Below are positions 7,646 through 60,402 of a DNA stretch of 64,000 bases, piece by piece. This DNA is from an uncultured Gammaproteobacteria bacterium (lineage in GTDB: Bacteria > Patescibacteriota > Microgenomatia > CAZETR01 > Amesbacteraceae). The position numbers were made by a program, and so were the translations under genes. Within the stretch, counting starts at the first letter, position 1. Each line of letters begins with the position of its first letter. Under the pieces are notes generated by a model, which was given only the letters and a program-made list of their open reading frames with translations, searched no databases and was not told where the DNA came from. The stretch spans positions 905,553 to 969,552 of the forward strand of contig CAZFGX010000001.1 of the NCBI GenBank assembly GCA_964518565.1. Direction: 5' to 3'.

Positions 7646-8815
7646 CTACGATACGAAGGTCAATGCCTTACCCGTGGCCGATCCTCGACCTGTCCGCCCA
7701 ATTCGATGAACATAATCATCATACGTCGCTGGTTCATCAAAATTGATCACATGTGACACCCCATCAATATCCAATCCTCGAGCCGCCACATCTGTCGCGA
7801 CCAAAATGTTCAGAGCATTGTCTTTAAATTGACGTAACACTTTTAGTCGTTGATTTTGAGATTTATTTCCATGAATCGATCCCGCCAAAAATCCATTTTT
7901 TTGTAACGCAATCGCCAGCTTTTCTACTCCCCACTTGGTTCTACCAAAAATAATCACTTTTCGAAATTCATCCTGGACTAACAACTCTCTCAATTTTTCC
8001 AATTTTTCATCCAAATCTCGCACACGAATCACATCCTGATGCACCTGTGACGAAGTCTCCCTCACTTTTACCGACACTTGCACAGGATCTTTGGCAAATG
8101 TCCGAATCAATTGGTCAATATCTTTAGACAGTGTTGCCGAAAAAAACAGCGATTGTCGCTCACTTGGCAACAACCCCAAAATAAATCGGATGTCATGAAT
8201 AAAGCCAATATCCAGCATTCTATCTACTTCATCCAACACCACAGTTTTATAAGCTTGCAAATTGACTGCCTTTCGCCCAATCAAATCCTTCAGCCGTCCT
8301 GGGGTACAAATCAGCACATGCGGTTGGCGTTGTAGCTCCCAAATTTGCTTATTCATACTTCCACCACCAATACAAAGTACTGAATAAATCCCCATTCCAG
8401 TAGTAAATCCTCGCAACTCATCTTGGATTTGGCTAGCCAACTCTCGTGTTGGCGCCATCACCAACAATCGTTCCTGTCGGTTTTGCAACATTTTATGAAT
8501 ACTTGGCAACAAAAACGCCGCTGTTTTCCCTGTGCCAGTATTAGCGATTCCCACTACATCACGACCAGCCAAAATAGGTTTCATTGCCTGATCTTGAATT
8601 GGAGTTGGATAGGTATAACCCTTTTTCCCAATCAAGCTCAACAGTCTTGGATCAAAACCAAAATCCGAAAACGTGTGGGTTGCCTCATATGCTACTTGTT
8701 CCACTTCTTGAACTTGGGTATTCACATATGCTCGAGGGTCTACACTACTACCACCAAAATTCCGCCGTGGTCGCGGCGAATTAAATCTTCGTGATGCTCG
8801 ATATGGTCGGTACAT
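7646..8815 (-). CDS. DEAD-box ATP-dependent RNA helicase
   Basis: 389 aa. Q-motif region, Walker A TGTGKTAAF, DEVD (DEAD variant), SAT, HRIGRTGR. Arg-rich N-terminal tail. Confidence 0.9.
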   Translation of the reverse strand: MYRPYRASRRFNSPRPRRNFGGSSVDPRAYVNTQVQEVEQVAYEATHTFSDFGFDPRLLSLIGKKGYTYPTPIQDQAMKPILAGRDVVGIANTGTGKTAAFLLPSIHKMLQNRQERLLVMAPTRELASQIQDELRGFTTGMGIYSVLCIGGGSMNKQIWELQRQPHVLICTPGRLKDLIGRKAVNLQAYKTVVLDEVDRMLDIGFIHDIRFILGLLPSERQSLFFSATLSKDIDQLIRTFAKDPVQVSVKVRETSSQVHQDVIRVRDLDEKLEKLRELLVQDEFRKVIIFGRTKWGVEKLAIALQKNGFLAGSIHGNKSQNQRLKVLRQFKDNALNILVATDVAARGLDIDGVSHVINFDEPATYDDYVHRIGRTGRGSATGKALTFVS

Positions 8816-9481: not shown

Positions 9482-9937
9482 CTATTTCCACAAAGCCAAC
9501 GCTATAGTAAATACTGTCAAACTTACATATATCGTTACGACAAGTGACAAATCGATAGAAAAACGAATAGTAATCAACTCATCTGGATCCATCTTTACCA
9601 CTCCTTGGCGCAATTTCTTCATCAACGTTTTGATTTCAGAAAATCCAGACAAAATAGGCGTCTTAAAAGAAAGGATCTTTTTGATTTGTCTAAAAACCCC
9701 TTCAAATGGTTCTCGTACATCGCCAGAGATCTGAGGATACCACTGCTGAAGCAGACGTATGAATAACCACAATAGACACACTAACAATCCGACCAATCCA
9801 TACGGCTGGCCAACTAAAACTAGAAAAACACAAAAAACAAATGAGCACCATGCCAGGCTATCGACCAACCACTGTGCAAACGTATACTTCTGCCTATCTG
9901 AACCATTGTCCATGTCTATACCTCCAAATATTCTCAA
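9482..9937 (-). CDS. hypothetical membrane protein
   Basis: 151 aa with three or more hydrophobic segments and no recognised motif. Confidence 0.4.
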   Translation of the reverse strand: MRIFGGIDMDNGSDRQKYTFAQWLVDSLAWCSFVFCVFLVLVGQPYGLVGLLVCLLWLFIRLLQQWYPQISGDVREPFEGVFRQIKKILSFKTPILSGFSEIKTLMKKLRQGVVKMDPDELITIRFSIDLSLVVTIYVSLTVFTIALALWK

Positions 9938-10079
9938 AGTACAACAAACTATGTTTTATCTCATAAAACAGCCATTTGTTTTTGAGTAAAACAGGTAAAT
10001 TATAACAAAACTTCTTTTTATCAAAATCTTACAAATTTTTTATACTCTTCTTATCTCACGGTTTTTTAATCAAAATTGT

Positions 10080-10622
10080 ATGAAAGCATATCGAACCGGA
10101 AAAATTCATTCCGAAAATTTCACTATCCCAATCAAATTGTATCCAGTTGTTAAAAAGCCGCCCAAGCTGGCCAAATTAATCGACAAAAAAATACACCCCT
10201 CTATAGGTCTGGACTACTTCTCCAAAAAAATTCTCACCTATCAACCCACAACCACATACACCAACAAATCCGTGTTTCCTATTCTCCAATTTTGCAATCT
10301 CAATCAAGTCGATTGGCGTTTATTAAACAAATCCTACTACGCCATACCCTGCAAAAAAACCGACGGCTGGTACGAAGCCCTTACCCATGTCTTATTTTAT
10401 ACAAAAAAGGCTGCTGTTATTGGATTTCCCACTCGAGCCTCAAATATATCTTCGGCTATTTTGATGAGCAATTCAGACTACTTACTTCTATTTCAACTCC
10501 ACAACTTCAACCAACTATCTCCTATTCCCCAATATTCCACTCCTATCTCAGATCCTCAAAAAAATCAGCTCCTACTAAAACAAGTGAATCAACAAACCAA
10601 ATGCTTTCCCTCACTAGATTAA
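10080..10622 (+). CDS. Ku-like protein (minimal/divergent Ku beta-barrel core)
   Basis: 180 aa. The N-terminus MKAYRTGKIHSENFTIPIKLYPV resembles bacterial Ku (…IWKGSISFGLVNIPVKLYSA). The central block NKSYYAIPCKKTDGWYEALTHVLFYTKKAAVIGF resembles Ku (DRSYFLEPD…KSYVLLAKTLAETDRMAIVHF). It is shorter than typical Ku (about 260-300 aa). Confidence 0.4.
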   Translation: MKAYRTGKIHSENFTIPIKLYPVVKKPPKLAKLIDKKIHPSIGLDYFSKKILTYQPTTTYTNKSVFPILQFCNLNQVDWRLLNKSYYAIPCKKTDGWYEALTHVLFYTKKAAVIGFPTRASNISSAILMSNSDYLLLFQLHNFNQLSPIPQYSTPISDPQKNQLLLKQVNQQTKCFPSLD

Positions 10623-11506: not shown

Positions 11507-12058
11507 CTACGCGTTTGGATCTGGCGGCAAAAATTCTTCCCCACCCGAATTATCAAATGACTGTTCAGCCTTCAACCATTCTATATAGTCACACCCTGTG
11601 GCCTTCTTTGTCTCACGATCCCAGCCAGACGTACTACATTTTTTCATCTTTTTTCCAGCTGCCGTAGTAAACAACACTAATTTTTCTCCACATTTTGGAC
11701 ATACTTCATCTAGCTGTTCCGTTGTTCCATTTATCCATTCCACATAATCACACCCCGTAGCTTTCTTTGCCGCACTATCCCATCCTCCAGTACTACATTT
11801 TTTCATCTTTTTACCAAATCGTGTCACTTGGAGTACCAAAGGATTTCCACATTTCGGACAATTCTCATCCAGCACTTTTGGCTCCACCGCCAACCATTTT
11901 ACATAGTCACACCCTTCATTTTTTTTTGTTTCTTTATTCCAACTACCATTACTACACCGTTGCAATTTTCGCCCTGTCGGCGTTTCAGTTACATCACCCA
12001 GTGGTGAACCACATTTTGGACAAAGCTCTGCATCCATGGTGGAAAGCATATCACACAC
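11507..12058 (-). CDS. protein composed of three tandem topoisomerase-type C4 zinc-ribbon repeats
   Basis: 183 aa. Three units of about 58 aa, each CPKCG…(K)KMKKCS(T)GW(D)…KKATGCDY(V/I)EW, as in the topoisomerase I/YrdD DNA-binding zinc ribbons. The DNA shows the corresponding ~174-nt periodicity. Confidence 0.65.
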   Translation of the reverse strand: MCDMLSTMDAELCPKCGSPLGDVTETPTGRKLQRCSNGSWNKETKKNEGCDYVKWLAVEPKVLDENCPKCGNPLVLQVTRFGKKMKKCSTGGWDSAAKKATGCDYVEWINGTTEQLDEVCPKCGEKLVLFTTAAGKKMKKCSTSGWDRETKKATGCDYIEWLKAEQSFDNSGGEEFLPPDPNA

Positions 12059-12061
12059 CCA

Positions 12062-12472
12062 TTACCACGTCACCTGTTTTTTCATCCATTCTACAAATGT
12101 CTCCGGACAAGCCATAGTCGACAGCCTTCCTTGCTTCACCAGAGCAAAATCTGCAAACTGTTTTTCTCCTTTTACCTGAGCTAGACTCACTTGTTCACCT
12201 TCTGCAAACTTCTTCTCAAACCCTATTTTGGCTACCCAACTCGGCCTACTGTCTGCTGTATTTTCATAAGGCTCCCCTAGCACCTTGGCTATTCCTACAA
12301 TTCGTTTTTGTTCGCCCGAATGGTAAATAAATATGCGGTCTCCTGTTTTCCAAGACCGAATCACCGCTATCGCAGTATAGTTGTGTACCCCATCCCACAC
12401 CGTCTCTCCATCCCGCTCCAGATCTTCTATGGAATAAGTGCCCGGTTCAGTCTTGGCCAAAAAATAATTCAT
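12062..12472 (-). CDS. EVE (PUA-like) domain protein
   Basis: Start moved to the internal ATG at 12472 (MNYFLAKTEPGTYSIEDL…) from the longer 12694 ORF. EVE-type motifs YHSGEQKRIVGIAKV and WVAKIGF. Confidence 0.65.
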   Translation of the reverse strand: MNYFLAKTEPGTYSIEDLERDGETVWDGVHNYTAIAVIRSWKTGDRIFIYHSGEQKRIVGIAKVLGEPYENTADSRPSWVAKIGFEKKFAEGEQVSLAQVKGEKQFADFALVKQGRLSTMACPETFVEWMKKQVTW

Positions 12473-12533
12473 AGCCCTAATTGTAATATATCCACAAACA
12501 TCCACAACATGTGCACAACTGCCACGACATTGC

Positions 12534-12977
12534 GTGGATAACATGTGGATGATATCGTGTAGAAATATGGCATATATCAAAGTCCACATTGTCCCAAACC
12601 AAGAAATTTCTCTTGAAGGTGATGATCTCACAATCGAGCGTGTATTAGATAAATATTTCCCCCCCGCGCCAGTCGTCACGCAACCCACCACCAACTCTTC
12701 GCTCCACGACCTAGTTTACAAATCTTTACCCAAATCAGAAGCCGAATGGCTCATAATTTACGCATATTATCTAGATAAATCAGAATTTACTCGCCAAGAT
12801 ATTATTACGTCGTACAAATCCACGCAAAGATACACGCACAATCACAGTAAAAACCTAAGTTTCAATATAAAAACTTGTATCAAAAATTCTTGGATTCGTG
12901 CCATTTCAGCCTCCACATTTGCCCTTACCCCTACTGGCCAAAACCATATCCAGACTATTTTGTCTCGAAATGCATAA
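12534..12977 (+). CDS. hypothetical protein
   Basis: 147-aa ORF with no motif. The true start may be the internal MAYIKV. Confidence 0.3.
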   Translation: MDNMWMISCRNMAYIKVHIVPNQEISLEGDDLTIERVLDKYFPPAPVVTQPTTNSSLHDLVYKSLPKSEAEWLIIYAYYLDKSEFTRQDIITSYKSTQRYTHNHSKNLSFNIKTCIKNSWIRAISASTFALTPTGQNHIQTILSRNA

Positions 12978-14248: not shown

Positions 14249-16096
14249 TCAATTCGAACACGCACGGACAGCTTGGTTACACACCTTACCCACATTCACA
14301 TCTTTACTATCAGTACCTGCTAAACCATCCAAAGTTAAGGTGTCGCTCACCTTCGTAAGGGACATAATTTTGGCGGTAGGGCTGTCCTTGGACAACGAAA
14401 AAATCACACCCGGATACTGGACTAGCTGAAATTGGATTTCATTACCCAAGTCACTAATCCGAGACACCTCACCTTTATACAAAGTCACCCCAGCTGCCTT
14501 CTGCATGTCGGGCGAAGCATCACTATCCCCAGCAATTTGTCGTTGCAACTTAGCGTAAGCTTCATTTAGTGTTGGAGCAATGATCACCTTTGGAGCATCT
14601 GTGTTTGCGTATCGAGCTCGAAAGAATGCAAATCCCATGTGCTTTCCGCGCAAAGAATTTGCCTCATCTGGATCGACCAGCAAACAATAGACCACCTTCT
14701 CACCCAACACATCAGTCAGAATACAGTTATCCGCTTCGGCATCTTTTGCCATACCCGGAGTGTTGCGTACCCGTTCAGTCACCAATGTATCAATCGACTC
14801 AATAGTCGAAAGAGGAACTGGCGGCTTAATGGCAATCGCCTCCCCAGTACGAGGATCTACATACAAAATCCTGGCAATCTGTGTCCCCTTACTCTCATCA
14901 GTGAAAGTAATCTGATATGCCATTCGTGGCAATCGTGACACATAGTTGAACCGATCAATCTTCATTCGTCGGTCAAAATTCGTTTGAGGGCACCATGTAG
15001 CCTCTGAAAATTGTCCCCAAGCTTGTGCATACTTTTGCACATAATCCGGAGAAAAAATTCGATCCACATCTGCCGGCATGTCTGCCAACGAAGTCGTAGT
15101 AATTTGCCCAGTAAATGGATCCATCAACAGAGCTGAATCCATGGTATCGCCATCGACTCCCAAAGTCGGCTTCAAAACCCCAGCTGTATATATAGCTCGC
15201 CCATCATCCATCACTTCAATCCCCGGATCATCAGCAATTGCCTGATTCGGTAGTTCAAAATCATAGTACAAATGAGCCTTCAAGTTTTGACCACTCGAGA
15301 ATCGAATATCATAGACATATTTGATTTTCTGATCCAAAACGATAATCGGCTTTGACACCGAACGATTTGTCGCATCAATCAATATATATCCCGGCACCAT
15401 GCCACCTTTCTTAAAAAAGGTGTTAAACGACTTACCATCCAATCCTAGAACTTCACCCGCAACTTCACGCGGCTTCAGCTCAGCATGCCAGTACAAATGA
15501 CCATTGATAGTCTCCAAGTATGGATGCTCAGCCACATCTAGCCAACCACCCAAATCCTGTCCCATAACGTCCAGCGCATTTGCATAGGCTTCACGCTCTG
15601 AGCGCTGTGGCAGCTGGTCAAGCGGCACATCAAATCGGTAACCATCTTGCTGCTTGACCTTCAAAACTCCCGCAAACTGCTGGTTAATCTGGTCATAAGC
15701 CGAACCACAGATAAATGGCCTACTAGTGATAGGCCCCTGTGGATTAAAGATCGTAGCTCCTATCAGAAGAACAAACAACCCCACAAAAGCAATCATTTGA
15801 ATGATTAATGCCGATGGCGAACCATCACCATACGAACGGCCAGCAAGCCCAATCGCCTCAAGAACAATAAAAACAACAAGCGGCACAAAACTCAACCAAA
15901 AGTAATCCCCAAAAGGAAAAACCTTGAGATGGACGCTTGCATATCCAGTAATAATCCAGATAAGAAAAGCGTTAACCAATAAACCAGCAACTGACACAGT
16001 AATCGCCTTTACGACTCGCCCCTCCAAAATACCAAAGATCAAACTGATCAACGCTGGTATCAAGGGGAACGCAAACATCATTCCTGTTTGTGACAT
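14249..16096 (-). CDS. large polytopic membrane protein with big extracytoplasmic domain, unknown function
   Basis: 615 aa. About six N-terminal TM helices, then a ~450-aa soluble region. No recognised motif. Confidence 0.5.
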   Translation of the reverse strand: MSQTGMMFAFPLIPALISLIFGILEGRVVKAITVSVAGLLVNAFLIWIITGYASVHLKVFPFGDYFWLSFVPLVVFIVLEAIGLAGRSYGDGSPSALIIQMIAFVGLFVLLIGATIFNPQGPITSRPFICGSAYDQINQQFAGVLKVKQQDGYRFDVPLDQLPQRSEREAYANALDVMGQDLGGWLDVAEHPYLETINGHLYWHAELKPREVAGEVLGLDGKSFNTFFKKGGMVPGYILIDATNRSVSKPIIVLDQKIKYVYDIRFSSGQNLKAHLYYDFELPNQAIADDPGIEVMDDGRAIYTAGVLKPTLGVDGDTMDSALLMDPFTGQITTTSLADMPADVDRIFSPDYVQKYAQAWGQFSEATWCPQTNFDRRMKIDRFNYVSRLPRMAYQITFTDESKGTQIARILYVDPRTGEAIAIKPPVPLSTIESIDTLVTERVRNTPGMAKDAEADNCILTDVLGEKVVYCLLVDPDEANSLRGKHMGFAFFRARYANTDAPKVIIAPTLNEAYAKLQRQIAGDSDASPDMQKAAGVTLYKGEVSRISDLGNEIQFQLVQYPGVIFSLSKDSPTAKIMSLTKVSDTLTLDGLAGTDSKDVNVGKVCNQAVRACSN

Positions 16097-32953: not shown

Positions 32954-33055
32954 ATCATAATAATAATTGATTATTTATCGTTTGTCAATAAATTATTATT
33001 GATATACATAACATTACCTCTAAAATAGCTTATCAAATAAGCTATACTTCCATAT

Positions 33056-33958
33056 ATGCTTACCGAAGAAAAAATTCGTCAAACTGAAAACGTAGAAGTT
33101 CCCCCACCCTCCGCAGAACTATTCAACAAACTTACAAGAATCGAGTCTCTACCAGAAACAGAATCTTCAAAACAACTTAAAGACATTCTCAAACAAAAAT
33201 CCCAAGACATGCTAAAAGCGTGGCAAGACAGAGGTTTTATATCTACCCAAGAAGCAAACTCTGTCAGCACTGCTTGGGAGAATACCATTATATTAGACAG
33301 CCAAGGAATGGAAATGTTTGGCCAATATCAATCTTCTATTTTTGAAAAAGCCAAAATAGAATTAGACGCCAGAAATTCAGAACCAGAGATGGCCACCTTA
33401 GCCGAAAAAGCCAAAGCAATAATTGAATCTACAAAACTTACCTGCAAACAAGCTGGTGCTCTCACCTTTAGACCCAGCTCTATGCAAGCCGAAGAATCCA
33501 ACATCGACACACCTCTTCCCTCATTTATTCTTATAAACACAGATAAAACCACCACAGAAAATCCAGGAAAAATAAACGCTACTGCATTTGAAGAAACTGC
33601 CCACCTCATCAGCAAGTTAAGCCAATATCCAGAAGCCAACACCAAATGGCTAGAAGAAACCATGGCTCGAGTTGTAGCATTTGAAACTCCCTCTGCTCAT
33701 GGCGACCAAAACGAAAAAGATTCAAAGACAGCTGCAGATATACTCAGATATCATGACTACAAATTATTGTTTCATATAGTAAATAAACAAATTGGCGATA
33801 ACGGCGAAACCCTACTTCGGATGTTTTTTGGTCGAGAACCACTCAATAGTCCACTTGTTTCAAAAGCCGAAAAAGCCATCAAATCAGTAGACATGATCGC
33901 TCAAATAGTTGACGCTGGCATACCCCTCGACAACCTCCTCGAACAAAAGGATAAGTAA
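33056..33958 (+). CDS. hypothetical protein
   Basis: 300 aa, acidic/helical, no motif. Confidence 0.4.
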   Translation: MLTEEKIRQTENVEVPPPSAELFNKLTRIESLPETESSKQLKDILKQKSQDMLKAWQDRGFISTQEANSVSTAWENTIILDSQGMEMFGQYQSSIFEKAKIELDARNSEPEMATLAEKAKAIIESTKLTCKQAGALTFRPSSMQAEESNIDTPLPSFILINTDKTTTENPGKINATAFEETAHLISKLSQYPEANTKWLEETMARVVAFETPSAHGDQNEKDSKTAADILRYHDYKLLFHIVNKQIGDNGETLLRMFFGREPLNSPLVSKAEKAIKSVDMIAQIVDAGIPLDNLLEQKDK

Positions 33959-37811: not shown

Positions 37812-37844
37812 GAGTATTATGAAGTTCGGATAACGTCTATAGTG

Positions 37845-38106
37845 CTCCCCCGCAGGGATTCGAACCCCGAACCTTTTCGTTACAAGAACCCTCGCATTAC
37901 TGCAAGGCTTGGACTATCTCATCGACCACATGGGCCGCCAGGTATATAGTCTCTACACATTTACTACATATATTTATATGTAGATTTAGCTCGGGATTGT
38001 CCTACAAATGTAGGAGTTCCCCGAATTAGCCTGATTTTTCCACTCGATGTTGCCACCAAGGGCTGCCAATTGACAGCGAATTGCTCTACCGTTGAGCTAC
38101 AGGGGA
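37845..38106 (-). tRNA. tRNA-Asn(GUU) interrupted by a ~190-nt putative group I intron
   Basis: Exon 1 (38106..38073): UCCCCUG-UA-GCUC-AACGGUA-GAGC-A-AUUCG-CUGU. Exon 2 (37882..37845): UAA-CGAAA-AGGUU-CGGGG-UUCGAAU-CCCUG-CGGGGGA-G. Joined, they give a standard cloverleaf with a U1-A72 start like E. coli tRNA-Asn, anticodon loop CUGUUAA and discriminator G. No CCA is encoded. Because both intron flanks carry a full loop, the splice position is ambiguous; an Asp(GUC) reading is possible but lacks the U-1/omegaG boundaries. Confidence 0.6.
37883..38072 (-). ncRNA. putative group I intron inserted in the tRNA anticodon loop (between positions 35 and 36)
   Basis: The 5' exon ends in U and the intron ends in G (omegaG). 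There is an R-like element AGAGACUAUA (plus 37945..37954) and an S-like element GAGAUAGUCC (plus 37911..37920) that could form P7 (GACUA/UAGUC). Several local hairpins. No ORF inside. Confidence 0.55.
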
Positions 38107-45862: not shown

Positions 45863-46018
45863 AAATATTTTCTCTTTTGAAAAAAAATTTAATAAAAGTT
45901 ACACCTTTAAATAGATAAATTAATTATTTTTTGTACACAAAAAATACTCCCAGAAAAATAGCTAAATTAACTTTCCAAAATACCCAAAAGAAAAGCGAAA
46001 AATTGCTATACTATTTAT

Positions 46019-46519
46019 ATGTTGCCAATATTTGTTCGCGCCTTTCTGGTTTTTTTACCAGCCGGTATCGCCAACATGACTCCAATACTAGCTGCTCATA
46101 CTCCAGCCCTAAAAAAGTTCGCCACCCCTTTAGATTTTGGCCACCACTTTCACCATAAACGCATCTTTGGTGATCACAAAACCTGGCGCGGACTAATAAC
46201 TGGTGTATTCACCGGCACCCTCACCAGCTTATTTTTCGGTCTACCGATCAGCTATGGTCTATTAGTTAGTTTCGGCGCCTTGGCCGGAGATGCGATCAAA
46301 AGCTTTTTCAAACGCCGCTTTAATGTCGCCTCTGGCCGTTCTTGGTTTCCTTTTGATCAAGTCGACTTTATTCTCGGCGGTCTACTTCTCGCCGCCTTGC
46401 TTGGCTCAGCCAACCCCACCCGTGGATTGGAAGTCTACATTTTCCTTCTCTATTTCGGTCTCCATCTTATTTCCAGTTTTGTCGGTTATCTTTTAAAATT
46501 AAAATCTAGTCCAATATGA
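46019..46519 (+). CDS. CDP-archaeol synthase (CarS/DUF46) family protein
   Basis: 166-aa membrane protein with the signature FGDHKTWRGLITG and downstream GDAIKSFFKRR. Confidence 0.55.
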   Translation: MLPIFVRAFLVFLPAGIANMTPILAAHTPALKKFATPLDFGHHFHHKRIFGDHKTWRGLITGVFTGTLTSLFFGLPISYGLLVSFGALAGDAIKSFFKRRFNVASGRSWFPFDQVDFILGGLLLAALLGSANPTRGLEVYIFLLYFGLHLISSFVGYLLKLKSSPI

Positions 46520-48229: not shown

Positions 48230-48922
48230 ATGAAGCCAAAAATTTCGCTAATCATCCCCTGCTTTAACGAAGCAGAAAGCATAGGCTCAGTACTCAAGTC
48301 CATACCAAAAACAGCAAATATCGAAACAATAGTCATCGACAACAATTCACGAGACCAAACAGCAACTATTGCCAAAAAAATGGGAGCCAAAGTAATCTTT
48401 GAACCCAGACAAGGAAAGGGATATGCAGTGAGAACTGGAATAAAAAATATCGACAAAAAATCTGAATATGTTGTAATGCTTGACGGTGACAACACCTACA
48501 GACCAGAAGAAATATTTCGTCTAGTTGAACCACTACAAAATAATTTTTGCGATGTCATATTGGGTTCGCGCCTGAGTGGAAAAGTAAAACCAAACTCAAT
48601 GAAATTCCATAGCCGAGTCGGAAATTGGTTCTTTTCCTTTTTAGTTAGATTTTTTTACGTGACAAATGTTACAGATGTCCTCACGGGATACTTTGCCTGG
48701 AAAACTGATGCGATTAAAAAACTTCTTCCTGTATTAACCTCCCAAGGTTTTGAAATAGAAATGGAAATGATCACAAAAATGGCCAAAATGGGCTATGGCA
48801 TATACTCTGTTCCAATTACCTACGACAAAAGGATTGGCAAATCAAACCTAAGCAGTATAAAAGATGGAATAAAAATCTTTAAAGAATTTTTAAAAAATTT
48901 ACAATGGAAACCACAAAAATAA
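48230..48922 (+). CDS. glycosyltransferase family 2 (dolichyl-/polyprenyl-phosphate sugar transferase-like)
   Basis: 230 aa. ISLIIPCFNEAESI…MLDGDNTYRPEE. Confidence 0.8.
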   Translation: MKPKISLIIPCFNEAESIGSVLKSIPKTANIETIVIDNNSRDQTATIAKKMGAKVIFEPRQGKGYAVRTGIKNIDKKSEYVVMLDGDNTYRPEEIFRLVEPLQNNFCDVILGSRLSGKVKPNSMKFHSRVGNWFFSFLVRFFYVTNVTDVLTGYFAWKTDAIKKLLPVLTSQGFEIEMEMITKMAKMGYGIYSVPITYDKRIGKSNLSSIKDGIKIFKEFLKNLQWKPQK

Positions 48923-50109
48923 AAATTTTTTGGATAGTTCCACATTTAAATCTTTGGCAAGGGGGGTATAGATTTATCGCAGACTTATGCAAACAAACAT
49001 CAAATCAAATAACGACCACAATTGGTTACTCATCAGGAAAACAGGATTTAATTAGACATTTTGAACAAAGCAATGTCATAACAAAAAAAATTGGCGCTAT
49101 TGGAACAAATATCTTTTGGTATTGGGTACTAAGTCCACTATTTATTCTAGTTGAAATCATTTGTTCGTTAAAAACAACTAAAAATAACGACAAGGTAATC
49201 GCTTCACTTTTCCCCTCCATCTTCGTTTCCGCTGTATGCGCAAAAATATTTAAAAAAGATTTCATTCATTTTTGTTTTGTACCTTATCCATGGTTCTATG
49301 ACGAAAAATTTATCGACGAGCACAAATTTTATTTACGCGTCGCATTCAAGTTCTTAAGGTTTATATACACACCCTTAGATAAATGGGCTGCCAAATCTGC
49401 CAAAAAAACAATAACCCTGGATCCAATTAGTGCTGAACAAATCCATACGGTATATGGAATAAAAGCATTTCAAATTTCGTTAGGAATCGATACAAAACAT
49501 TTTCGGCCAATAAATAAAAAAAGAAATGAGATATATAAAAAATATTCATCTAATAAAATAATTTTTCATTCAACCGATTATTCACATTTAAAAAAAACAG
49601 AGAGAGTAATTGACATATTTACCGACGTTCAAAAAAAAATACCCAATACATTATTACTTATTAGTACTACCAGACCAGGAACCGCGGATGAAATTCGAAT
49701 TAAGAACAAAATAGTAAAACTAGGATTAAGCAAAAAAATTATTCTAACGGGAAAAATTGAGTATCAATTACTACCATACTACTTCTCAGCTGCAAGTTGT
49801 TACATTTCCCTTGCTGAAAATACCGCCATGTCAAATGTAAACTTACCTGTAAAGGAGGCGCTCGCCTGCGAAACAGCAGCAATAAGAACCCAAACCATAG
49901 TTCCAGATGTAACGAACAACAAATCCGGTTTCATAGTTAATCCCAATAACAAAAACCAAGTTATAAACAGAATCATGTATCTACTCAACAATCCGCTTCG
50001 TGCAAAAAAAATGGGCGTTTGGGGGAGGAAATCGATAATTCAACAATACTCATGGGAAAGAACTAGCGAAAAATTTGTTTCATTAATAGCTAATAACAAA
50101 AGTAATTAA
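48904..50109 (+). CDS. glycosyltransferase family 4 (GT-B)
   Basis: 401 aa. C-terminal GT-B region with the E-x7-E-like VKEALACETAAI. Confidence 0.6.
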   Translation: METTKIKIFWIVPHLNLWQGGYRFIADLCKQTSNQITTTIGYSSGKQDLIRHFEQSNVITKKIGAIGTNIFWYWVLSPLFILVEIICSLKTTKNNDKVIASLFPSIFVSAVCAKIFKKDFIHFCFVPYPWFYDEKFIDEHKFYLRVAFKFLRFIYTPLDKWAAKSAKKTITLDPISAEQIHTVYGIKAFQISLGIDTKHFRPINKKRNEIYKKYSSNKIIFHSTDYSHLKKTERVIDIFTDVQKKIPNTLLLISTTRPGTADEIRIKNKIVKLGLSKKIILTGKIEYQLLPYYFSAASCYISLAENTAMSNVNLPVKEALACETAAIRTQTIVPDVTNNKSGFIVNPNNKNQVINRIMYLLNNPLRAKKMGVWGRKSIIQQYSWERTSEKFVSLIANNKSN

Positions 50110-50842
50110 CTGTCCCCACAAGCAAAATATTACGGTAATGTTTTTTTAAAATTTTTGAGATTGAATTAAATTTATCACGATCAAGTGATTCAAAAAACAA
50201 ATATTTAGGCTTGTATTTAGAAAAGTCTAAGCCTATTAAGGCCTCAAGCTCATAACCTTCCAAATCAAGAGAGAGAAAATCTATTTGCCTAATTTTGCAC
50301 TGATCAAATAACTTAGTAAGAGTAATAGTAGGTACAGTATAAGAATATTTACGAACAAACGGGGACCCAGAATTCCAAAATGAAATATGATTTTTTATTT
50401 GAGCATCCGACATAGAATTTCTAACAACAGAAGACAAGCCTGAATAAAGTATTTCAATAAAAGAATTTTTGAAATACTTCGAAACCAAGGCAAATTGAAA
50501 AACCAAAGACCGGTTTCTATTCATTTTACATAACAATGCTTCTTTAGTATTTGGCTCAATTAATATTCCCCGCCACCCCAGTGCTTTTTCTAAAAAATAT
50601 GTATTACTTAAAAAAACCCCATTTGCAGCACCAGCTTCCACAAAAAAACCATCCCTAAAATTTAAGAATTTATTGAAAACGAGTTGAAAATCTTTTTCTT
50701 CGGTATGAGAAAAATAATAAATTCCAAATCGTTCAAAAAATGGCCGAAAGATAGTTACCTTTATCCAATAAATTCTATGAGGAATAAAATTCAATAGTAT
50801 TCGAAAAAAAATCTTCACGTTAATCAAAGCATAAATAATCAA
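50090..50842 (-). CDS. FkbM-family methyltransferase
   Basis: 250 aa. FVEAGAANGVFLSNTYFLEK…IDFLSLDLEGYE. Confidence 0.65.
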   Translation of the reverse strand: MIIYALINVKIFFRILLNFIPHRIYWIKVTIFRPFFERFGIYYFSHTEEKDFQLVFNKFLNFRDGFFVEAGAANGVFLSNTYFLEKALGWRGILIEPNTKEALLCKMNRNRSLVFQFALVSKYFKNSFIEILYSGLSSVVRNSMSDAQIKNHISFWNSGSPFVRKYSYTVPTITLTKLFDQCKIRQIDFLSLDLEGYELEALIGLDFSKYKPKYLFFESLDRDKFNSISKILKKHYRNILLVGTVNYFCY

Positions 50843-51554
50843 TGGAATTAATTTTTTGAATGGTTGAATAGTATCTTTTTAATAATGTGGCGACTTGTAC
50901 AAATTTATCTTTTGTTTGCGCCTCAAAAAGTAAAAATCTTGGTTTATATCTCGAAAAGTCTAAACCGGTCAACGCTTCATATTCGTAGCCTTCAACATCT
51001 AATGACAAAAAATCAATTTTTGAAATTCCACTTTGACGAATAATGTCATTCAAAGTCATCGCAGGCACAGTTCGCTCACCACGAACAGTCCATGGAGAAA
51101 CAGACCTAATTTTTTCAATATGAACCTTTTTCGATACATCATCCATCGCTCCACTAACCACACTCCCCAATCCCGCTTGAGAAATAGAAATAGAGGATCT
51201 TCGAAAATTTTTACCAACTAAAGCGCATGAAAAAACTGTCGAGCGCTTTCTATTTTTATTACACAAAGCAGCGTATTCAGGAATAGGTTCAACCAAAACA
51301 CCATGCCAATGACGAAATTTTTCCAGAAAATATGTATTACTAAATAAAACACCATCCCATGCCCCTGCTTCAAGGAAAACACCATTTTCAAAATTAAAAT
51401 GTTCATCAATTAATTTATCCAAACCCATTATTTCCATCCTTGAAAACCAAGTTAATCCAAACATTTCCGCAAAAGGTCTCAAAAACGCAGCCTTTATTCT
51501 ATAGTAAACATTAAACAAAACGGTAGAAAAGCGACCAGTTTTATTTATAGCCAT
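50820..51554 (-). CDS. FkbM-family methyltransferase (tandem paralog)
   Basis: 244 aa. FLEAGAWDGVLFSNTYFLEK…IDFLSLDVEGYE. About 50% identical to its neighbour. Confidence 0.65.
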   Translation of the reverse strand: MAINKTGRFSTVLFNVYYRIKAAFLRPFAEMFGLTWFSRMEIMGLDKLIDEHFNFENGVFLEAGAWDGVLFSNTYFLEKFRHWHGVLVEPIPEYAALCNKNRKRSTVFSCALVGKNFRRSSISISQAGLGSVVSGAMDDVSKKVHIEKIRSVSPWTVRGERTVPAMTLNDIIRQSGISKIDFLSLDVEGYEYEALTGLDFSRYKPRFLLFEAQTKDKFVQVATLLKRYYSTIQKINSIDYLCFD

Positions 51555-52953
51555 ACCACAAAAACAAATATTGCAAAATAAAAATATACATCAAAACAAA
51601 CAATAGAACCAAAATGAGATAATAAATTTTCATCCTTGAAGCCAAAATAGTAATTTTTGATTTTGCCGCAAATGGTGCAGCAGCTATTAACAACAAAGGT
51701 ACAAAATATTTACCTTGTACGCCATTTACCCACACGACATCTGCTGCGGTATTCGCTATAAATAAATACATATAAAGCAAGATAACCGACGAAACAACAC
51801 CAAAAACCAACAATCTTTTCTCTACTAAATAAAATGAAAATTTATCAACTACTCCATCCATCCACAATCCCAATACAGACATAAGTCCTAAAACAACAAC
51901 TCCCATTCCAAAATAAAAACGTACATCCAATCCTAGATAACCAAAAAATTCAGCCGGCAAAAAAGCAATAGTCATAGCAGATGTGTACAACGATGCTTTA
52001 ATAAAAATCAAAGGATGAAAAATTATTTGTTTTATTTGATACAACTGATCAAAACGGAAATCTGTGCCCTCTAGCAAATGCACATTTGATTCTTGAAAAA
52101 ACGTGTACTGATCCATCCGAGTGGCATTATTTACAGATGGATGAAACAAAAATACACTAGTCAAATAATAAAAAATTATTCCTAGAACCAAAATATTGAC
52201 TCCGATCAATAACTTTCTAAGCAAGAAAAATTTCTGAAAAAGTAAAAAGCTAAATACAAAAAAAATAGGGTAATAAAACGGTTTCAAAATAACTGCCGCT
52301 ATACCAGGCAAACAACACATCAACCACCATTTAGATATTGACCGAAAACGTATAAGTCTCAAAAAAACCGCAAACAATAAAAAAAGTCCCGGAGTTGAAA
52401 GTGAGTCATAACTAATAGTTGCAAAATGTAGTAAAACTACCGGCAATAAACCAAGCGCAAAAAATAGTCGTTTAAAATCAGGCGTAATACGAATCGCAGC
52501 AGCAACCAACAATAGACCAAATACTGAATTAAACACTCTTCCAAAATACAATTCATGAATTGGCGATAAACTAAAAAAATGAGCCAAAAAAATTCCAACT
52601 GCTGCTGCAGTATGACCATACAAAGGCGCTCCACAGACTAATGTCCTGACTGATTGATATGAAGAATCAGGCAGAGACTGGTATGAAAAAACTCGAGTCC
52701 AGTCAAATCCAGGCGGTGGAACAACCATAGATTTATCCAGTCCCATTTGCTCAATCAAATGTAATCGATTTTTTGAAATCAGATGCTGACCATCGTTACA
52801 AAAAACATGACCTTCTACCAATGCACTTGCAGCCAAATAATGTCTTTGCTCGTCAGGAATACGAAACGGAGGAATAAATATAGCAAAAAACACACAAGCC
52901 AAACCACCAAACACCAAATAAATGACAGGCAATTTTTTTTCAAAAACTCTCAT
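51541..52953 (-). CDS. DUF2142-like polytopic membrane protein (putative GT-C-type glycosyltransferase)
   Basis: 470 aa with more than ten TM segments. N-terminal PDEQRHY motif. Confidence 0.45.
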   Translation of the reverse strand: MRVFEKKLPVIYLVFGGLACVFFAIFIPPFRIPDEQRHYLAASALVEGHVFCNDGQHLISKNRLHLIEQMGLDKSMVVPPPGFDWTRVFSYQSLPDSSYQSVRTLVCGAPLYGHTAAAVGIFLAHFFSLSPIHELYFGRVFNSVFGLLLVAAAIRITPDFKRLFFALGLLPVVLLHFATISYDSLSTPGLFLLFAVFLRLIRFRSISKWWLMCCLPGIAAVILKPFYYPIFFVFSFLLFQKFFLLRKLLIGVNILVLGIIFYYLTSVFLFHPSVNNATRMDQYTFFQESNVHLLEGTDFRFDQLYQIKQIIFHPLIFIKASLYTSAMTIAFLPAEFFGYLGLDVRFYFGMGVVVLGLMSVLGLWMDGVVDKFSFYLVEKRLLVFGVVSSVILLYMYLFIANTAADVVWVNGVQGKYFVPLLLIAAAPFAAKSKITILASRMKIYYLILVLLFVLMYIFILQYLFLWYGYK

Positions 52954-54464
52954 TTTGACGGCGCAGCATAAATAATAGCCGTTTTATCCTCGTAGACATT
53001 GTGCCACCCTGCCTCCTCAAGTGTATGTAAAAACTGCACCGGTTCCTTATAATTCAAAAATTGTAGAACCATATTTGGCACAGGAAAGTTTAACAAGCTC
53101 GAAGTCTTTACTCCAGGTTTAGGCCACAACACTCTCTGTATTTTATATTTTTCAAAATATGGTTGAAAATTTCCTTTTTCCGAAATATCTATGATATCTG
53201 CAAATGCCGATAGACTCTCCTCTTCTGGAGCCATATCTCTTTTCCAAATAGCCATTCGTCCATCAATAAATACTTTTTTCTCTGGATATTGCCAGATCAA
53301 ATACCCTCCCCATCCATATTCAGCCAACAAATTACCTTCAAATGGATGCTCCTTCAAATACTCAATCGCTCCAATAGGATAATATCGACTTCTATTCGGA
53401 TCGGCCAATTGACTCACTAGTTGCCAACCACACACCCACACAAAAAATAACCCAGCAATCCCCAGCAACACTCCAAAAAATATTTTTGCCCGCGCCAAAT
53501 TACCCGCCACCAACCGTTCAAACTCAGCAAACACTTTGGGCCACAAAAACAAAAACAGCACCGCAAATAATGCTACATGACGAGTACTCAATATTGCTTC
53601 CAATATAATCGCTCCTATAAGCAACCCTGTCCAAGACGAAAATCTGGATCGAAAATACCAGTATCCAAATCCCAAAAGTACTGCTGCAAAAATAAACGCG
53701 GGTTCGAAATTAAACACTGAAGGCATCCACTCGATAATGTAAGTGCGCATTTGGTTCCCCCACAAAGTCATACCCACTTCCCGCCACAATTCAAATCCAT
53801 AGGGAGTTAACAACGTCACAACCAAACCAGTTACCCAGGCTAATAAATCTTTCCACAAAATCCTTTTTTTCATCCAAGATTCCACCACTGCCGTCATCGC
53901 CCACACCGCCAATCCCACAATAAACCCTCCGTGTAAATTTGCCCAAAACCAAATACACGTAACCAATGCAAGATATCTCAACCTTGAGGTCCAATGTAAC
54001 ACCCGAAGAAAAATTGCAAACAACAACCAATCTACTACCTGTGTTCGTACAGAAAATCTCAACAAAAACATTGGCGCAGCCAACAACAAACCCAATACCG
54101 ATCGCAAAGAATATTCGGGGTAAACAGCCACCAAAACGGTCAAAACCACAATTGCTGCATATAATCCAGCCAAAACCGTCATTCCCAATTTCGGATAAAC
54201 TATTGCCCAAATCACATCTGACAACCAAGCATGATCCACATAGGGATAACTTGGCATGGTGTAGGAAAATGGGTCTGTTTTTGGAATCTGTCGATGTTGC
54301 ACAACATAATTTCCCGTCATCAAATGCCAACCAAAATCTGGATCCAGTCGCACTGCCGCCTGAACAGAAAATATTCCAAAAATTATTATCAATAAAAGCC
54401 ACCACATCCATTTCATAAGTAAAACTAAGTATACGTTACTCTCGAACAAAAATTTGTGCTTCAC
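52950..54464 (-). CDS. polytopic membrane protein, putative GT-C-fold glycosyltransferase
   Basis: 504 aa. N-terminal block RLDPDFGWHLMTGNY…PKTDPFSYTMPSYPYVDHAWL, then about ten TM segments and a C-terminal soluble domain. Confidence 0.45.
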   Translation of the reverse strand: MKHKFLFESNVYLVLLMKWMWWLLLIIIFGIFSVQAAVRLDPDFGWHLMTGNYVVQHRQIPKTDPFSYTMPSYPYVDHAWLSDVIWAIVYPKLGMTVLAGLYAAIVVLTVLVAVYPEYSLRSVLGLLLAAPMFLLRFSVRTQVVDWLLFAIFLRVLHWTSRLRYLALVTCIWFWANLHGGFIVGLAVWAMTAVVESWMKKRILWKDLLAWVTGLVVTLLTPYGFELWREVGMTLWGNQMRTYIIEWMPSVFNFEPAFIFAAVLLGFGYWYFRSRFSSWTGLLIGAIILEAILSTRHVALFAVLFLFLWPKVFAEFERLVAGNLARAKIFFGVLLGIAGLFFVWVCGWQLVSQLADPNRSRYYPIGAIEYLKEHPFEGNLLAEYGWGGYLIWQYPEKKVFIDGRMAIWKRDMAPEEESLSAFADIIDISEKGNFQPYFEKYKIQRVLWPKPGVKTSSLLNFPVPNMVLQFLNYKEPVQFLHTLEEAGWHNVYEDKTAIIYAAPSK

Positions 54465-55911
54465 TATCTTTATATTCCTCGATCCAACCGTTTTGTAACA
54501 AATAACTCGAGAATTGTTCTATATCTGCAGCTGGATAAACACCTATTCGTTTCCAAAATCTATCTTTCCAAGACTCCTCTGAAACCACTGGCCAAAGAAC
54601 TCGTCGTATATTAAATTTATCAAACAATTGACGAGAGTTTCCATTTCGAATCGATAAATAATCCCACATAGCATACTGACTCTCCGCTGCATTAGCCCGC
54701 CATTGACTCCAGGAACCTTCTCTCCAAGACGGCATTCTTCCATCAATAAACATTTTTCTCTCGGGGTATTGCCAGATCAAATATCCTCCCCATTGATAAG
54801 CCGCAAACAAGTTTCCTTGAATATTTTGGTTTTTTAAAAAATTCACAGCCTCAACTGGATACCCAAAAAATCTTCCTTGACCAATAGTCTGAATAAAATT
54901 CCAGCTCGCCTGTAAATCAATAACCAAAGCGACCCCTACTAAAATGCCTCCAAACACATTCATTCTATGTTTCGCTACTGAGTTATTGTTCATCTCATCG
55001 GCAAAATGTTTTAAAATTGACCCAGAAACCCATATAGCAACGAGCACAAAAAATGCCGCATGTCGCACACTCAAACAGCTCATTATTAATGTAACCAAAA
55101 ACAAACCTAATTGCTCCGCAGACAATCGACGCTTCCATATCCACACCAAGGCGGCAGAAAATGCAAGAATCATCATAGTACCAAACTCTAAATATTTATA
55201 TATCGGTTGCCATTCTTGAATAAATTTCGGCAAATTTTTATCACTCATTTGCATCCATACCTCCGTCCAAATCCGATAACCATACGGAGTAATAAATGTC
55301 GCCAAAACAACAAAAATACCAATCAATAGATCAATAAATACAATTCGTTTTTGTCGAAAAAATTTCACCAAACTAAAAAATCCCACCACTCCTACTCCCC
55401 AAACCACGCTTCCATGCATATTAGACCAAAACAAAAACAATATTGGTAAACTCCATCGCCATTTGCGCCAATTCGCGTCAGCAAAAATCTTCAAAACCAA
55501 AGCAAAAAATACCCAGCTCAAAACCTGGGGCCGTATTCCTGCACGATTCCACAAAACAGAGACTCCTAAAAATACAGGGATGACAAAAAATTGCCAGTCA
55601 TGTCTATTAATCACCAAAAAGAGCGCCACTGTCGCAATCAGAGCAAATAATATTGCCAATCCACCAAAACCAATCGTATCGTATCCCACAGCCAAACCCA
55701 AATTCGTTAGCCATTCATGATCGACAAATGGAAAACTAGGCATTGTATAAGAAAACGGGTCAATCTTTGGCACTCGACCTTCTTGCAAAACATGCTTTCC
55801 CAGCTGGTAATGCCAACCAAAATCTGGATCCAATCGAAAAAATCCCGCCACCCAAAATACAGCTGCGATAAAAAAAATTCCCACCCAAAATCCCGCCAAT
55901 CGAAGATTCAT
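54436..55911 (-). CDS. polytopic membrane protein, paralog of 52950..54464
   Basis: 491 aa. RLDPDFGWHYQLGKH…PKIDPFSYTMPSFPFVDHEWL. Same architecture as its neighbour. Confidence 0.45.
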   Translation of the reverse strand: MNLRLAGFWVGIFFIAAVFWVAGFFRLDPDFGWHYQLGKHVLQEGRVPKIDPFSYTMPSFPFVDHEWLTNLGLAVGYDTIGFGGLAILFALIATVALFLVINRHDWQFFVIPVFLGVSVLWNRAGIRPQVLSWVFFALVLKIFADANWRKWRWSLPILFLFWSNMHGSVVWGVGVVGFFSLVKFFRQKRIVFIDLLIGIFVVLATFITPYGYRIWTEVWMQMSDKNLPKFIQEWQPIYKYLEFGTMMILAFSAALVWIWKRRLSAEQLGLFLVTLIMSCLSVRHAAFFVLVAIWVSGSILKHFADEMNNNSVAKHRMNVFGGILVGVALVIDLQASWNFIQTIGQGRFFGYPVEAVNFLKNQNIQGNLFAAYQWGGYLIWQYPERKMFIDGRMPSWREGSWSQWRANAAESQYAMWDYLSIRNGNSRQLFDKFNIRRVLWPVVSEESWKDRFWKRIGVYPAADIEQFSSYLLQNGWIEEYKDSEAQIFVRE

Positions 55912-55983
55912 AGCTAAAGTATACGGGACAAATGGTAAAATTAAGGCCTAAAACTAGGCTGTCGGAAGACACATTCACAATTT

Positions 55984-56055
55984 GCTCTCGTAGCTCAATG
56001 GATAGAGTAACAGTTTGCGGAACTGTTGATGCAGGTTCGATTCCTGCCGGGAGCA
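55984..56055 (+). tRNA. tRNA-Arg (anticodon reads GCG)
   Basis: GCUCUCG-UA-GCUC-AAUGGAUA-GAGU-A-ACAGU-UUGCGGA-ACUGU-UGAU-GCAGG-UUCGAUU-CCUGC-CGGGAGC-A. The D-arm matches E. coli tRNA-Arg. The 3' end is CCCA, so CCA is not cleanly encoded. Confidence 0.7.
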
Positions 56056-56065
56056 CCCAACCTTT

Positions 56066-56155
56066 GGAGAGGTGCAGGAGTGGTTGATCTGGCCGCTCTC
56101 GAAAAGCGGTAGGGCGGTAACGTCCTCGTGGGTTCAAATCCCACCCTCTCCGCCA
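56066..56155 (+). tRNA. tRNA-Ser(CGA)
   Basis: GGAGAGG acceptor, anticodon loop CUCGAAA, long variable arm, T-arm GUGGGUUCAAAUCCCAC, then CCUCUCC-G-CCA. Confidence 0.8.
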
Positions 56156-56163
56156 CGCCAAAT

Positions 56164-56235
56164 GCCCTCATAGCTCAACGGATAGAGTACCAGTTTCCGG
56201 AACTGATGATGATGGTTCAATTCCATCTGAGGGCA
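56164..56235 (+). tRNA. tRNA-Arg(CCG)
   Basis: GCCCUCA-UA-GCUC-AACGGAUA-GAGU…anticodon loop UUCCGGA…T-loop UUCAAUU…UGAGGGC-A. No CCA encoded. Confidence 0.75.
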
Positions 56236-56763
56236 CTACTTCACCAATTTAGCTTCCGATAATGGAAACTTATCTCCCAACCACTTCCCCATTTTATCCA
56301 TATCCGTATCAGCTGGTCGTTCATGCAAAAGTAAAGTGTTCATGACTTTTTCGACCTGCATAGGCTTTGTCTCCCCGAGCGGTACAACAACCCGTCCCAC
56401 AATCTCAGCTGGTGTCTCCAAACACAACAATTCATGCTCCCATTTTGTCTCCATCCACCACCGAGTAAACACGTTCCATTCATACAATTTTCCCGCTATA
56501 CGCAATCCTCTACTCGTAATTTTATAGTCAATCAATTCCGCCGGCACCACAGACCAGGTGTAATACGCAAACACCAATGCTGCTACGACAGCGATGAGCA
56601 TCCATTCTCCTGCCGTAATTAAAATCACTCCCACCAAAAAAGCAATTACCAATGGCAAAGTCATAAACCCCTTACCTTTTTTTTGATACGGCCGCGCTGG
56701 CGCCCGCCATTCTAAATAAATTTGTTCTTGTATTGGAGTGTTTACCGAAGCACGATCTTCCAT
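56236..56763 (-). CDS. hypothetical membrane protein
   Basis: 175 aa with two central TM segments. Confidence 0.4.
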   Translation of the reverse strand: MEDRASVNTPIQEQIYLEWRAPARPYQKKGKGFMTLPLVIAFLVGVILITAGEWMLIAVVAALVFAYYTWSVVPAELIDYKITSRGLRIAGKLYEWNVFTRWWMETKWEHELLCLETPAEIVGRVVVPLGETKPMQVEKVMNTLLLHERPADTDMDKMGKWLGDKFPLSEAKLVK

Positions 56764-57732: not shown

Positions 57733-57819
57733 GGAGAGGTCGCATAGTGGCCTAGTGCGGAGGTCTTGAAAACCTCTGTGGCGGCAACGTCACCGTGGGT
57801 TCGAATCCCACCCTCTCCG
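57733..57819 (+). tRNA. tRNA-Ser(UGA)
   Basis: GGAGAGG-UC-GCAU…anticodon loop CUUGAAA, long variable arm, GUGGGUUCGAAUCCCAC-CCUCUCC-G. Confidence 0.8.
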
Positions 57820-57839
57820 CAAAAAACCAAGCCACATCT

Positions 57840-57924
57840 GGAGGGGTCGCATAGTGGCCGAGTGCAGCGGTTTACTAAACCGCCATATCGCAAGATATCG
57901 CGAGTTCGAATCTCGCCCCCTCCG
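57840..57924 (+). tRNA. type II (Ser-like) tRNA whose anticodon reads ACU
   Basis: GGAGGGG-UC-GCAU-AGUGGCCGA-GUGC-A-GCGGU-UUACUAA-ACCGC, hairpin variable arm, GCGAG-UUCGAAU-CUCGC-CCCCUCC-G. A34 is unexpected for a bacterial tRNA-Ser (normally GCU). Confidence 0.55.
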
Positions 57925-58148
57925 CAGAAGGTCTTCGGTTGCTCCAAGACCCATCTACTATGCTCGATTAGCCCTATGTGGCTTGCTAAAAAGACGCTAA
58001 GAATCGCAAGTATCCCAAACATAGCCTGTAATGTATAAAATCGCCTAAATGGCCCTCAAGGTATTTGCGCTCGGTTCTAAGCTTTTGATGAAAAGAGCTG
58101 CTTTAGCCCTACGTTAGTGAAAAATCCTCGTTCTAATCTCGTTTTTCC

Positions 58149-58796: not shown

Positions 58797-58802
58797 TTTT
58801 TG

Positions 58803-60116: not shown

Positions 60117-60207
60117 CAGGTACAAGGTACCGCAAAGGTTCTGGAAGTCTAGTCGGGGAATACTATAACCCCGCGATGAAAACCTCCAACCTTTAAGGAC
60201 TCTCTTT

Positions 60208-60402
60208 TTACTTACTAGTCCAAGCAAAAAAATGAGTTATTAAAGTAAAACCGAGGGCAATCCATCCGACAATTGCTGGTAAAAATGCATTGCCAACCAG
60301 GTAGTGCTGCAATAAAATTGCCGCACCAAATCCTCCAACTGCGTGGGAAAGACTTGATAACATAACGTGCTTTGACCAATAATTTATAGGTTTTTCAATC
60401 AT
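60208..60402 (-). CDS. small two-TM membrane protein (paralog of 62091..62285)
   Basis: 64 aa. YWSKHVMLSSLSHAVGGFGAAILLQ…, about 65% identical to its paralog. Confidence 0.45.
   Translation of the reverse strand: MIEKPINYWSKHVMLSSLSHAVGGFGAAILLQHYLVGNAFLPAIVGWIALGFTLITHFFAWTSK

Follow-up and report, generated by a model that had tools for sequence, protein, structure and literature searches.

The stretch of DNA analysed here, a window of 64,000 nucleotides (nt) from contig CAZFGX010000001.1 (GenBank assembly GCA_964518565.1), contains a gene for a 180-residue protein related to bacterial Ku, which is here called mini-Ku. The gene is a lone plus-strand open reading frame (ORF) flanked by minus-strand genes. 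Upstream of it lie genes for MscL and a membrane protein of 143 amino acids (aa), and downstream are genes for a 70-aa protein, a 179/183-aa membrane protein, a protein with three Top1-type zinc ribbons and an EVE-domain protein. Mini-Ku is a homologue of Ku with the Ku fold, and purifying selection acts on it. Part of the bridge, the pillar and the C-terminal region of canonical Ku are missing, and no ligase gene accompanies it within 64 kb.

An earlier note on this DNA had matched the N-terminus and a central block of the 180-aa protein to bacterial Ku, and the ORF and the motifs that it quoted were confirmed. It had also proposed a HMMER search with PF02735 and a structural comparison with the Ku barrel, and both bore out the assignment. 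The HMMER search gave a match of 31.9 bits (E = 1.5e-7), above the gathering threshold of 25 bits, although limited to residues 63-141 (positions 79-167 of the 190 in the profile). Two relatives were available for comparison, the 89%-identical orthologue P0002 (locus L003, from an independent sample) and the 46%-identical, 193-aa protein P0003. The orthologue scored 27.5 bits on the same profile. A single-sequence search of the PDB with mini-Ku was marginal (E ~0.8), but homology to Ku is secure because P0003 scores 70.9 bits on PF02735 (profile 5-175) and matches Ku of Mycobacterium tuberculosis (Mtb) with E = 7e-8. A profile made from the three sequences aligned end to end with the Bacillus subtilis (Bsu) Ku core 9VNQ (profile 1-149 to chain 1-173, E = 3.7e-7), and no Pfam family other than Ku, including Gam (PF07352) and SPOC (PF07744), matched mini-Ku at E up to 10.

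An AlphaFold2 (AF2) monomer model was built from a five-sequence alignment. It had a mean predicted local distance difference test score (pLDDT) of 71 and a predicted template modelling score (pTM) of 0.65, and was confident (pLDDT 80-88) at residues 1-25 and 63-140, with seven strands and a helix at 96-107. Within the barrel, strands were placed at 65-73, 82-90, 110-117, 123-130 and 135-140 around this helix (pLDDT 79-87), and the model as a whole keeps the seven-strand Ku beta-barrel. Foldseek searches of the PDB with the model returned only Ku chains as top matches (Bsu Ku at 7e-10, Mtb Ku and human Ku80), and the sole matches in a viral structure library were full-length phage Kus of 270-284 aa, including a mycobacteriophage Ku (BFVD). 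By Pfam and by fold, mini-Ku is a member of the Ku superfamily. It lies outside the equivalog of bacterial Ku proteins of non-homologous end joining (NHEJ): on TIGR02772 (Ku_bact) it scored 38.6 bits against a cutoff of 150, with only positions 88-184 of 259 covered, and neither a complete bridge nor a LigD-binding C-terminus was found. The parts of the protein and its upstream region are listed in the table.

Table. The mini-Ku gene, the parts of the encoded protein and the upstream region (positions in the window).
Feature	Positions	Strand	Basis
Mini-Ku ORF (P0001), complete, ATG start, 180 aa + stop	10080..10622	+	
N-terminal beta-hairpin 1, residues 1-23, MKAYRTGKIHSENFTIPIKLYPV, the counterpart of Mtb Ku 1-23 with its Y21	10080..10148	+	Canonical Ku alignments; AF2 strands E5-10 and E15-22, pLDDT 85-88
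Lys-rich remnant of the DNA-encircling bridge, residues 24-62	10149..10265	+	AF2 pLDDT ~50-62
Ku beta-barrel core + helix 3, residues 63-141; matches Pfam/TIGRFAM Ku models	10266..10502	+	
Short P/Q/T-rich tail, residues 142-180	10503..10619	+	Predicted helix 159-172, AF2 pLDDT ~50
Upstream region, ~96% identical to the orthologous L003 locus	9966..10079	+	Intergenic comparison

In Mtb Ku, hairpin 1 comprises residues 11-31, the bridge with its three hairpins 23-91, the sling 167-227, pillar helix 4 residues 194-210 and the LigD-binding helix 7 residues 252-273 (PMC12784962). Residues 24-62 of mini-Ku occupy the place of this 69-residue canonical bridge, and a single clean gap of ~22 residues, between residues 50 and 51 (nt 10229 and 10230), corresponds to residues 51-72 of Mtb and Bsu Ku; MAFFT splits it into 13 + 10 columns. 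Mini-Ku therefore does not have the complete three-hairpin bridge (Mtb Ku 23-91), and this internal deletion had not been described in the earlier note. P0003 keeps the segment deleted in mini-Ku and has a nearly full-length bridge; its AF2 model was poor in that region (pLDDT 30-45) and was not used. At the other end, tail helix 159-172, which lies in a low-confidence part of the AF2 model, falls opposite the first sling helix of Ku in the alignment. All three family members stop just past this helix, before the pillar helix and before the minimal and extended C-terminal domains, and the whole family is blank over ~65 alignment columns of the canonical Ku C-terminus. Mini-Ku itself thus has neither the minimal LigD-binding C-terminal domain nor the pillar helix. 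Its isoelectric point (pI) is 9.71 and its net charge +14, the highest positive charge per residue among 51 ORFs of the window; the corresponding pI values are 9.73 for P0002, 9.96 for P0003 and 4.8 for the canonical Ku P0004. The bridge remnant contributes 8-9 K/R against 2-3 D/E in both mini-Ku and its orthologue.

The family is small. Word-indexed searches, started from the protein and from the family profile, revealed three sequence clusters among 5.8 billion proteins, and an exhaustive HMMER search of 1.84 billion representatives returned P0002 and P0003 as the only relatives; the canonical Kus P0004 and P0005 surfaced in the family searches only at E ~1.4. Searches of GTDB species genomes, JGI metagenome contigs and IMG/VR found no relatives. 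The motif DWRLLNxxYY, searched as a degenerate DNA pattern, occurred at 39 metagenome loci, none of which encoded a relative according to tblastn. The 931-bp contig of P0003 has no neighbours in common with the window and gives no information on context. P0003 is a complete ORF on this contig and shares the C-terminal truncation, indicating that the short form of Ku predates the split of the lineages.

The orthologue at L003 has the same length and the same neighbours as mini-Ku. Comparison of the two genes showed that 56 of 543 nt differ, affecting 25 codons synonymously and 19 non-synonymously, with no indel, frameshift or stop. The ratio of non-synonymous to synonymous substitution rates (dN/dS, omega) was 0.18 (Nei-Gojobori; Fisher p = 1.6e-9), compared with 0.07 for the neighbouring MscL gene and 0.05 for the 70-aa gene. 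Broken down by segment, omega was lowest in the barrel (0.12; 3 replacements among 79 residues), followed by the N-terminal hairpin (0.13) and the tail (0.15), and highest in the bridge remnant, where the value of 0.27 is still below neutrality (p = 0.005). The mini-Ku gene is under purifying selection. Upstream of it, the conservation of 114 nt between the window and L003 exceeds that of synonymous sites, and a promoter scan gave a sigma-70-like match, TTATCA-17-TATACT, at 10018-10046 (a consensus match only). No Shine-Dalgarno (SD) motif precedes the gene; this is uninformative on expression because ~60% of the window genes inspected lack one.

These data bear directly on the suggestion that mini-Ku is a non-functional relic, a Ku gene fragment in decay. 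The C-terminal truncation, the internal deletion, the weak scores on curated Ku models and the tiny taxonomic distribution would fit such a fragment, yet the substitution pattern, the unchanged length and the conserved synteny relative to an 89%-identical orthologue do not, and neither do a start codon at the canonical Ku start position, an upstream region that is ~96% conserved and holds a promoter-like site, and a 46%-identical relative that is also intact with the same truncation, showing the short form to be old. A decaying pseudogene, one of three options raised in the earlier note, was accordingly rejected, being effectively refuted by the selection test, and we regard decay as hardly credible.

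The genomic context was examined for signs of phage origin or defence. The window is housekeeping chromosome, with genes for enolase, iPGM, DnaG and RpoD, tRNAs and glycosyltransferases, and the order of the chromosomal neighbours MscL, DEAD-box helicase, enolase and iPGM is kept in a relative. No second Ku copy was revealed by tblastn. Matches to the enolase reach no more than ~61% identity and are spread over many phyla; the ~1.0-Mb contig and the gene content hint only tentatively at a host among the CPR/Patescibacteria. The base composition and strong strand skew of the mini-Ku gene match those of other plus-strand genes, so the gene looks native. Searches of PADLOC-DB v2 and PHROGs gave no match for mini-Ku or its five or six neighbours; the PADLOC result for the DEAD-box RNA helicase at 7646-8815 reflects generic SF2-helicase similarity only. 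Phage Mu Gam is ~174 aa long, close to the 180 aa of mini-Ku, and phages do carry Ku homologues, as the BFVD matches to mycobacteriophage Ku illustrate; on these grounds, a Gam-like protein derived from a phage or mobile element, or a part of an anti-phage defence system, could be proposed. Such an origin is nevertheless very improbable, given that the viral structural matches are full-length Kus, that Pfam Gam gave no match at E up to 10 and IMG/VR no relative, and that the gene has native GC content and strand skew among chromosomal neighbours in conserved order. Both the phage-origin and the defence-system readings were rejected on the lack of any Gam, PHROGs, PADLOC or IMG/VR match and on the housekeeping context. 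The earlier note had offered phage defence as an example of repurposing; the defence part falls with these results, while repurposing of the barrel in a general sense still has a place among the explanations and is taken up below.

With regard to a ligase partner, no ATP-dependent ligase domain was found in the 64-kb window, in which the genes at 1-12.7 kb were searched with Pfam and ORFs of at least 187 aa were scanned elsewhere; the remaining ORFs are too small for a ligase. The statement of the earlier note that no such gene lies nearby therefore stands. In bacteria, ku and ligD need not be neighbours, so mini-Ku, as a true Ku homologue, might be a canonical NHEJ Ku whose LigD-type ATP-dependent ligase is encoded elsewhere in the genome; the contig is ~1.0 Mb long in NCBI, of which 64 kb were examined. 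Gene neighbourhoods of this kind have been analysed (PMC7719229). The anatomy of the protein makes a canonical role quite improbable. The minimal C-terminus that Ku requires to bind and stimulate LigD (McGovern et al. 2016, PMC4889933) is missing, and the score of 38.6 bits on the Ku_bact equivalog is far from 150. In a survey of prokaryotic Ku, core domains spanned 187-311 residues and a C-terminal region of 19-173 residues was always present (PMC4889933), so that the whole of mini-Ku, at 180 residues, is shorter than the smallest surveyed core, which carried a C-terminal region in addition. Moreover, NHEJ correlates with large genomes (PMC7719229), whereas the contig here is ~1.0 Mb.

Taken together, we favour with moderate confidence the explanation that mini-Ku is a genuine, functional, lineage-restricted miniature Ku that binds nucleic acid, most likely the ends of double-stranded DNA (dsDNA), without LigD and protects or holds those ends. 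This explanation rests on the high positive charge, on the intact barrel and hairpin 1, and on the finding that a core-only Ku binds DNA, remaining a ring dimer (McGovern et al. 2016, PMC4889933). Mini-Ku would bind nucleic acid independently of LigD, probably as a homodimer formed through the barrel and the remaining bridge strands, and would protect or hold DNA ends in a small-genome bacterium; end sealing would be left to a housekeeping ligase such as LigA, and the canonical Ku-LigD pathway would not be run by mini-Ku. Of the three options in the earlier note, a stripped-down NHEJ end-binding protein is the best supported as far as end binding goes, in view of the intact barrel and hairpin, the purifying selection and the basic charge; its NHEJ part is less well supported, as the LigD-recruiting region and part of the bridge are missing.

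Several observations weigh against end binding of this kind. The bridge gap removes R58 and R62, two of the eight hydrogen-bonding DNA contacts of Mtb Ku, and among all eight only Y21 is identical in mini-Ku. The gap also removes E65, which forms an inter-subunit salt bridge, and C51, half of the CxxC that together with His35 is a probable metal site at the Ku bridge (PMC12658125). The dimer interface has three elements, of which the pillar helix is missing, and AF2 modelled the bridge remnant with low confidence. This remnant evolves fastest, having taken 10 of the 19 replacements (p = 0.003). The charge of mini-Ku is moderate evidence only, because the proteome is basic overall (median pI 8.2). 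Finally, the family comprises three sequences, the conservation statistics rest on one close pair, and the ligase search covered a 64-kb window of a ~1.0-Mb contig.

Some of the same observations could be explained if the Ku barrel had been repurposed and no longer encircled DNA, and instead either worked as a SPOC-like beta-barrel module for contacts with a protein or another ligand, or bound nucleic acid (for example RNA or internal DNA sites) without forming a ring. Damage to two of the three dimer-interface elements, the lack of conservation at most DNA-contact positions of Mtb Ku and the concentration of replacements in the bridge remnant all fit this explanation. It is the strongest of the alternatives but nevertheless rather unlikely, since mini-Ku has no sequence match to SPOC or any non-Ku family at E up to 10, the remaining half of the bridge is Lys-rich, still constrained and conserved in charge, the top positive charge density in the window suits nucleic-acid binding better than peptide binding, and P0003 of the same family keeps a nearly full-length bridge. 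A related proposal, itself rather unlikely, is that mini-Ku is a natural Ku without ring closure or ligase recruitment, which selection maintains in a ~1-Mb genome. It would then bind DNA in an open or clamp-like manner, or be a prokaryotic barrel on the way to a SPOC-like module that does not thread DNA.

Two neighbouring loci showed features of their own. The gene for the 143-aa membrane protein (9482-9913, minus strand), which adjoins mini-Ku, is hyperdivergent between the window and L003 (dS 1.9, dN 0.75), whereas the genes flanking it are nearly identical (dS 0.12-0.33), which points to a local recombination or diversifying hotspot. At 11507-12694 (minus strand), a 183-aa protein that consists of C4 zinc ribbons of the Top1 type, three in tandem (PF01396, 36.6 bits; faint similarity to the NAD-ligase zinc-binding domain), directly adjoins the EVE-domain protein (PF01878, 108 bits); the two could be a nucleic-acid-binding pair.

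Other features were recorded elsewhere in the window. A tRNA gene at 37843-38106 (minus strand) is split by a group I intron (Rfam RF00028, 71.2 bits at 37890-38082); its flanks carry the matching acceptor-stem halves TCCCCTG ... CGGGGGA and the D and T arms, ARAGORN made no call, and a partial duplicate of the start of the 5' exon (caatttattcccctgta) lies ~110 nt upstream. By the usual U...G splice-site rule, should it hold here, the anticodon may be GUU. ARAGORN called a tRNA-Ser at 57840-57925 (plus strand) with the anticodon ACT, unusual compared with the normal GCT, in a Ser/Arg tRNA cluster at 55983-56236 and 57733-57925. Adjoining this cluster at 58149-60227 (minus strand) are a large serine recombinase of 474 aa (Resolvase, Recombinase and zinc ribbon) and then a 215-aa ORF without Pfam match, and the recombinase may mark the boundary of an integrated element. 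The region 48230-52953, with a GC content of 32-34% compared with ~42-47% elsewhere, encodes glycosyltransferases, two FkbM methyltransferases and a DUF2142 membrane protein, and is probably a horizontally acquired or fast-evolving cluster for cell-surface glycans. Several genes have a TATACT -10-like hexamer ~7 nt ahead of the ATG and no SD motif (33031-33058 and 45994-46021, plus strand), an arrangement that suggests leaderless mRNAs. Large ORFs of 615, 504 and 491 aa at 14249-16096 and 52950-55911 (minus strand) had no Pfam match. The strands of the window are very strongly asymmetric: over its whole length (1-64000) the plus-strand GC skew is -0.27, and most genes lie on the minus strand; coding-strand skew is +0.2 to +0.49 for minus-strand genes and -0.1 to -0.46 for plus-strand genes.

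Comparison with known systems shows how far mini-Ku departs from bacterial Ku (PF02735/TIGR02772; M. tuberculosis Rv0937c, B. subtilis YkoV; PDB 8V53, 9I91 and 9VNQ). Those proteins have ~260-310 aa rather than 180; unlike them, mini-Ku has no equivalent of Mtb residues 51-72, no CxxC, no pillar helix 4 and no known LigD-binding element, falls far under the equivalog cutoff and has no ligase gene nearby. It is also basic (pI 9.7), whereas the canonical Ku compared with it is acidic (pI 4.8). A Ku of 180 residues that is under purifying selection in an apparent ~1-Mb genome, with a shortened bridge and no C-terminal arm, represents an unexpected setting for this protein. Genomes with Ku only are rare. 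The finding is limited by the three-sequence family, and the function is inferred from sequence and model.

The best structural and profile match is the engineered B. subtilis Ku core (PMC4889933; 9VNQ), which likewise lacks the C-terminal region. This construct forms a ring dimer and binds DNA but cannot bind or stimulate LigD, and by analogy mini-Ku may behave in the same way. With 227 residues in 9VNQ, the engineered core still has its whole bridge and the pillar/sling, whereas mini-Ku is ~45 residues shorter and lacks a hairpin of the bridge. If mini-Ku does bind DNA ends, it would show how small a natural Ku scaffold can be and still work, and it could serve as a very small end-protection tool.

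End binding would also make mini-Ku a cellular counterpart of phage Mu Gam, which it resembles in size and, by analogy, in its proposed stand-alone binding and protection of ends without a dedicated LigD. In E. coli, Mu Gam reportedly promotes the joining of ends by the host ligase (Bhattacharyya 2018, as cited in PMC6525309). Unlike Mu Gam, mini-Ku has no Gam-family or PHROGs match and sits in a chromosomal, non-phage context; a cellular Ku seems here to have been reduced independently.

SPOC domains and INTS13/14 are eukaryotic bridge-less barrels of the Ku type that serve as protein-interaction modules. No sequence similarity to them was detected and, unlike them, mini-Ku keeps half of the basic bridge and the Ku N-terminal hairpin. 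If mini-Ku does not bind DNA ends, it records how a DNA ring can turn into a plain Ku-type barrel in bacteria; if ring closure and ligase recruitment have both been lost, it would represent a new functional class of Ku-derived proteins and the minimal Ku scaffold tolerated by evolution. Mini-Ku is probably the smallest naturally maintained Ku described.
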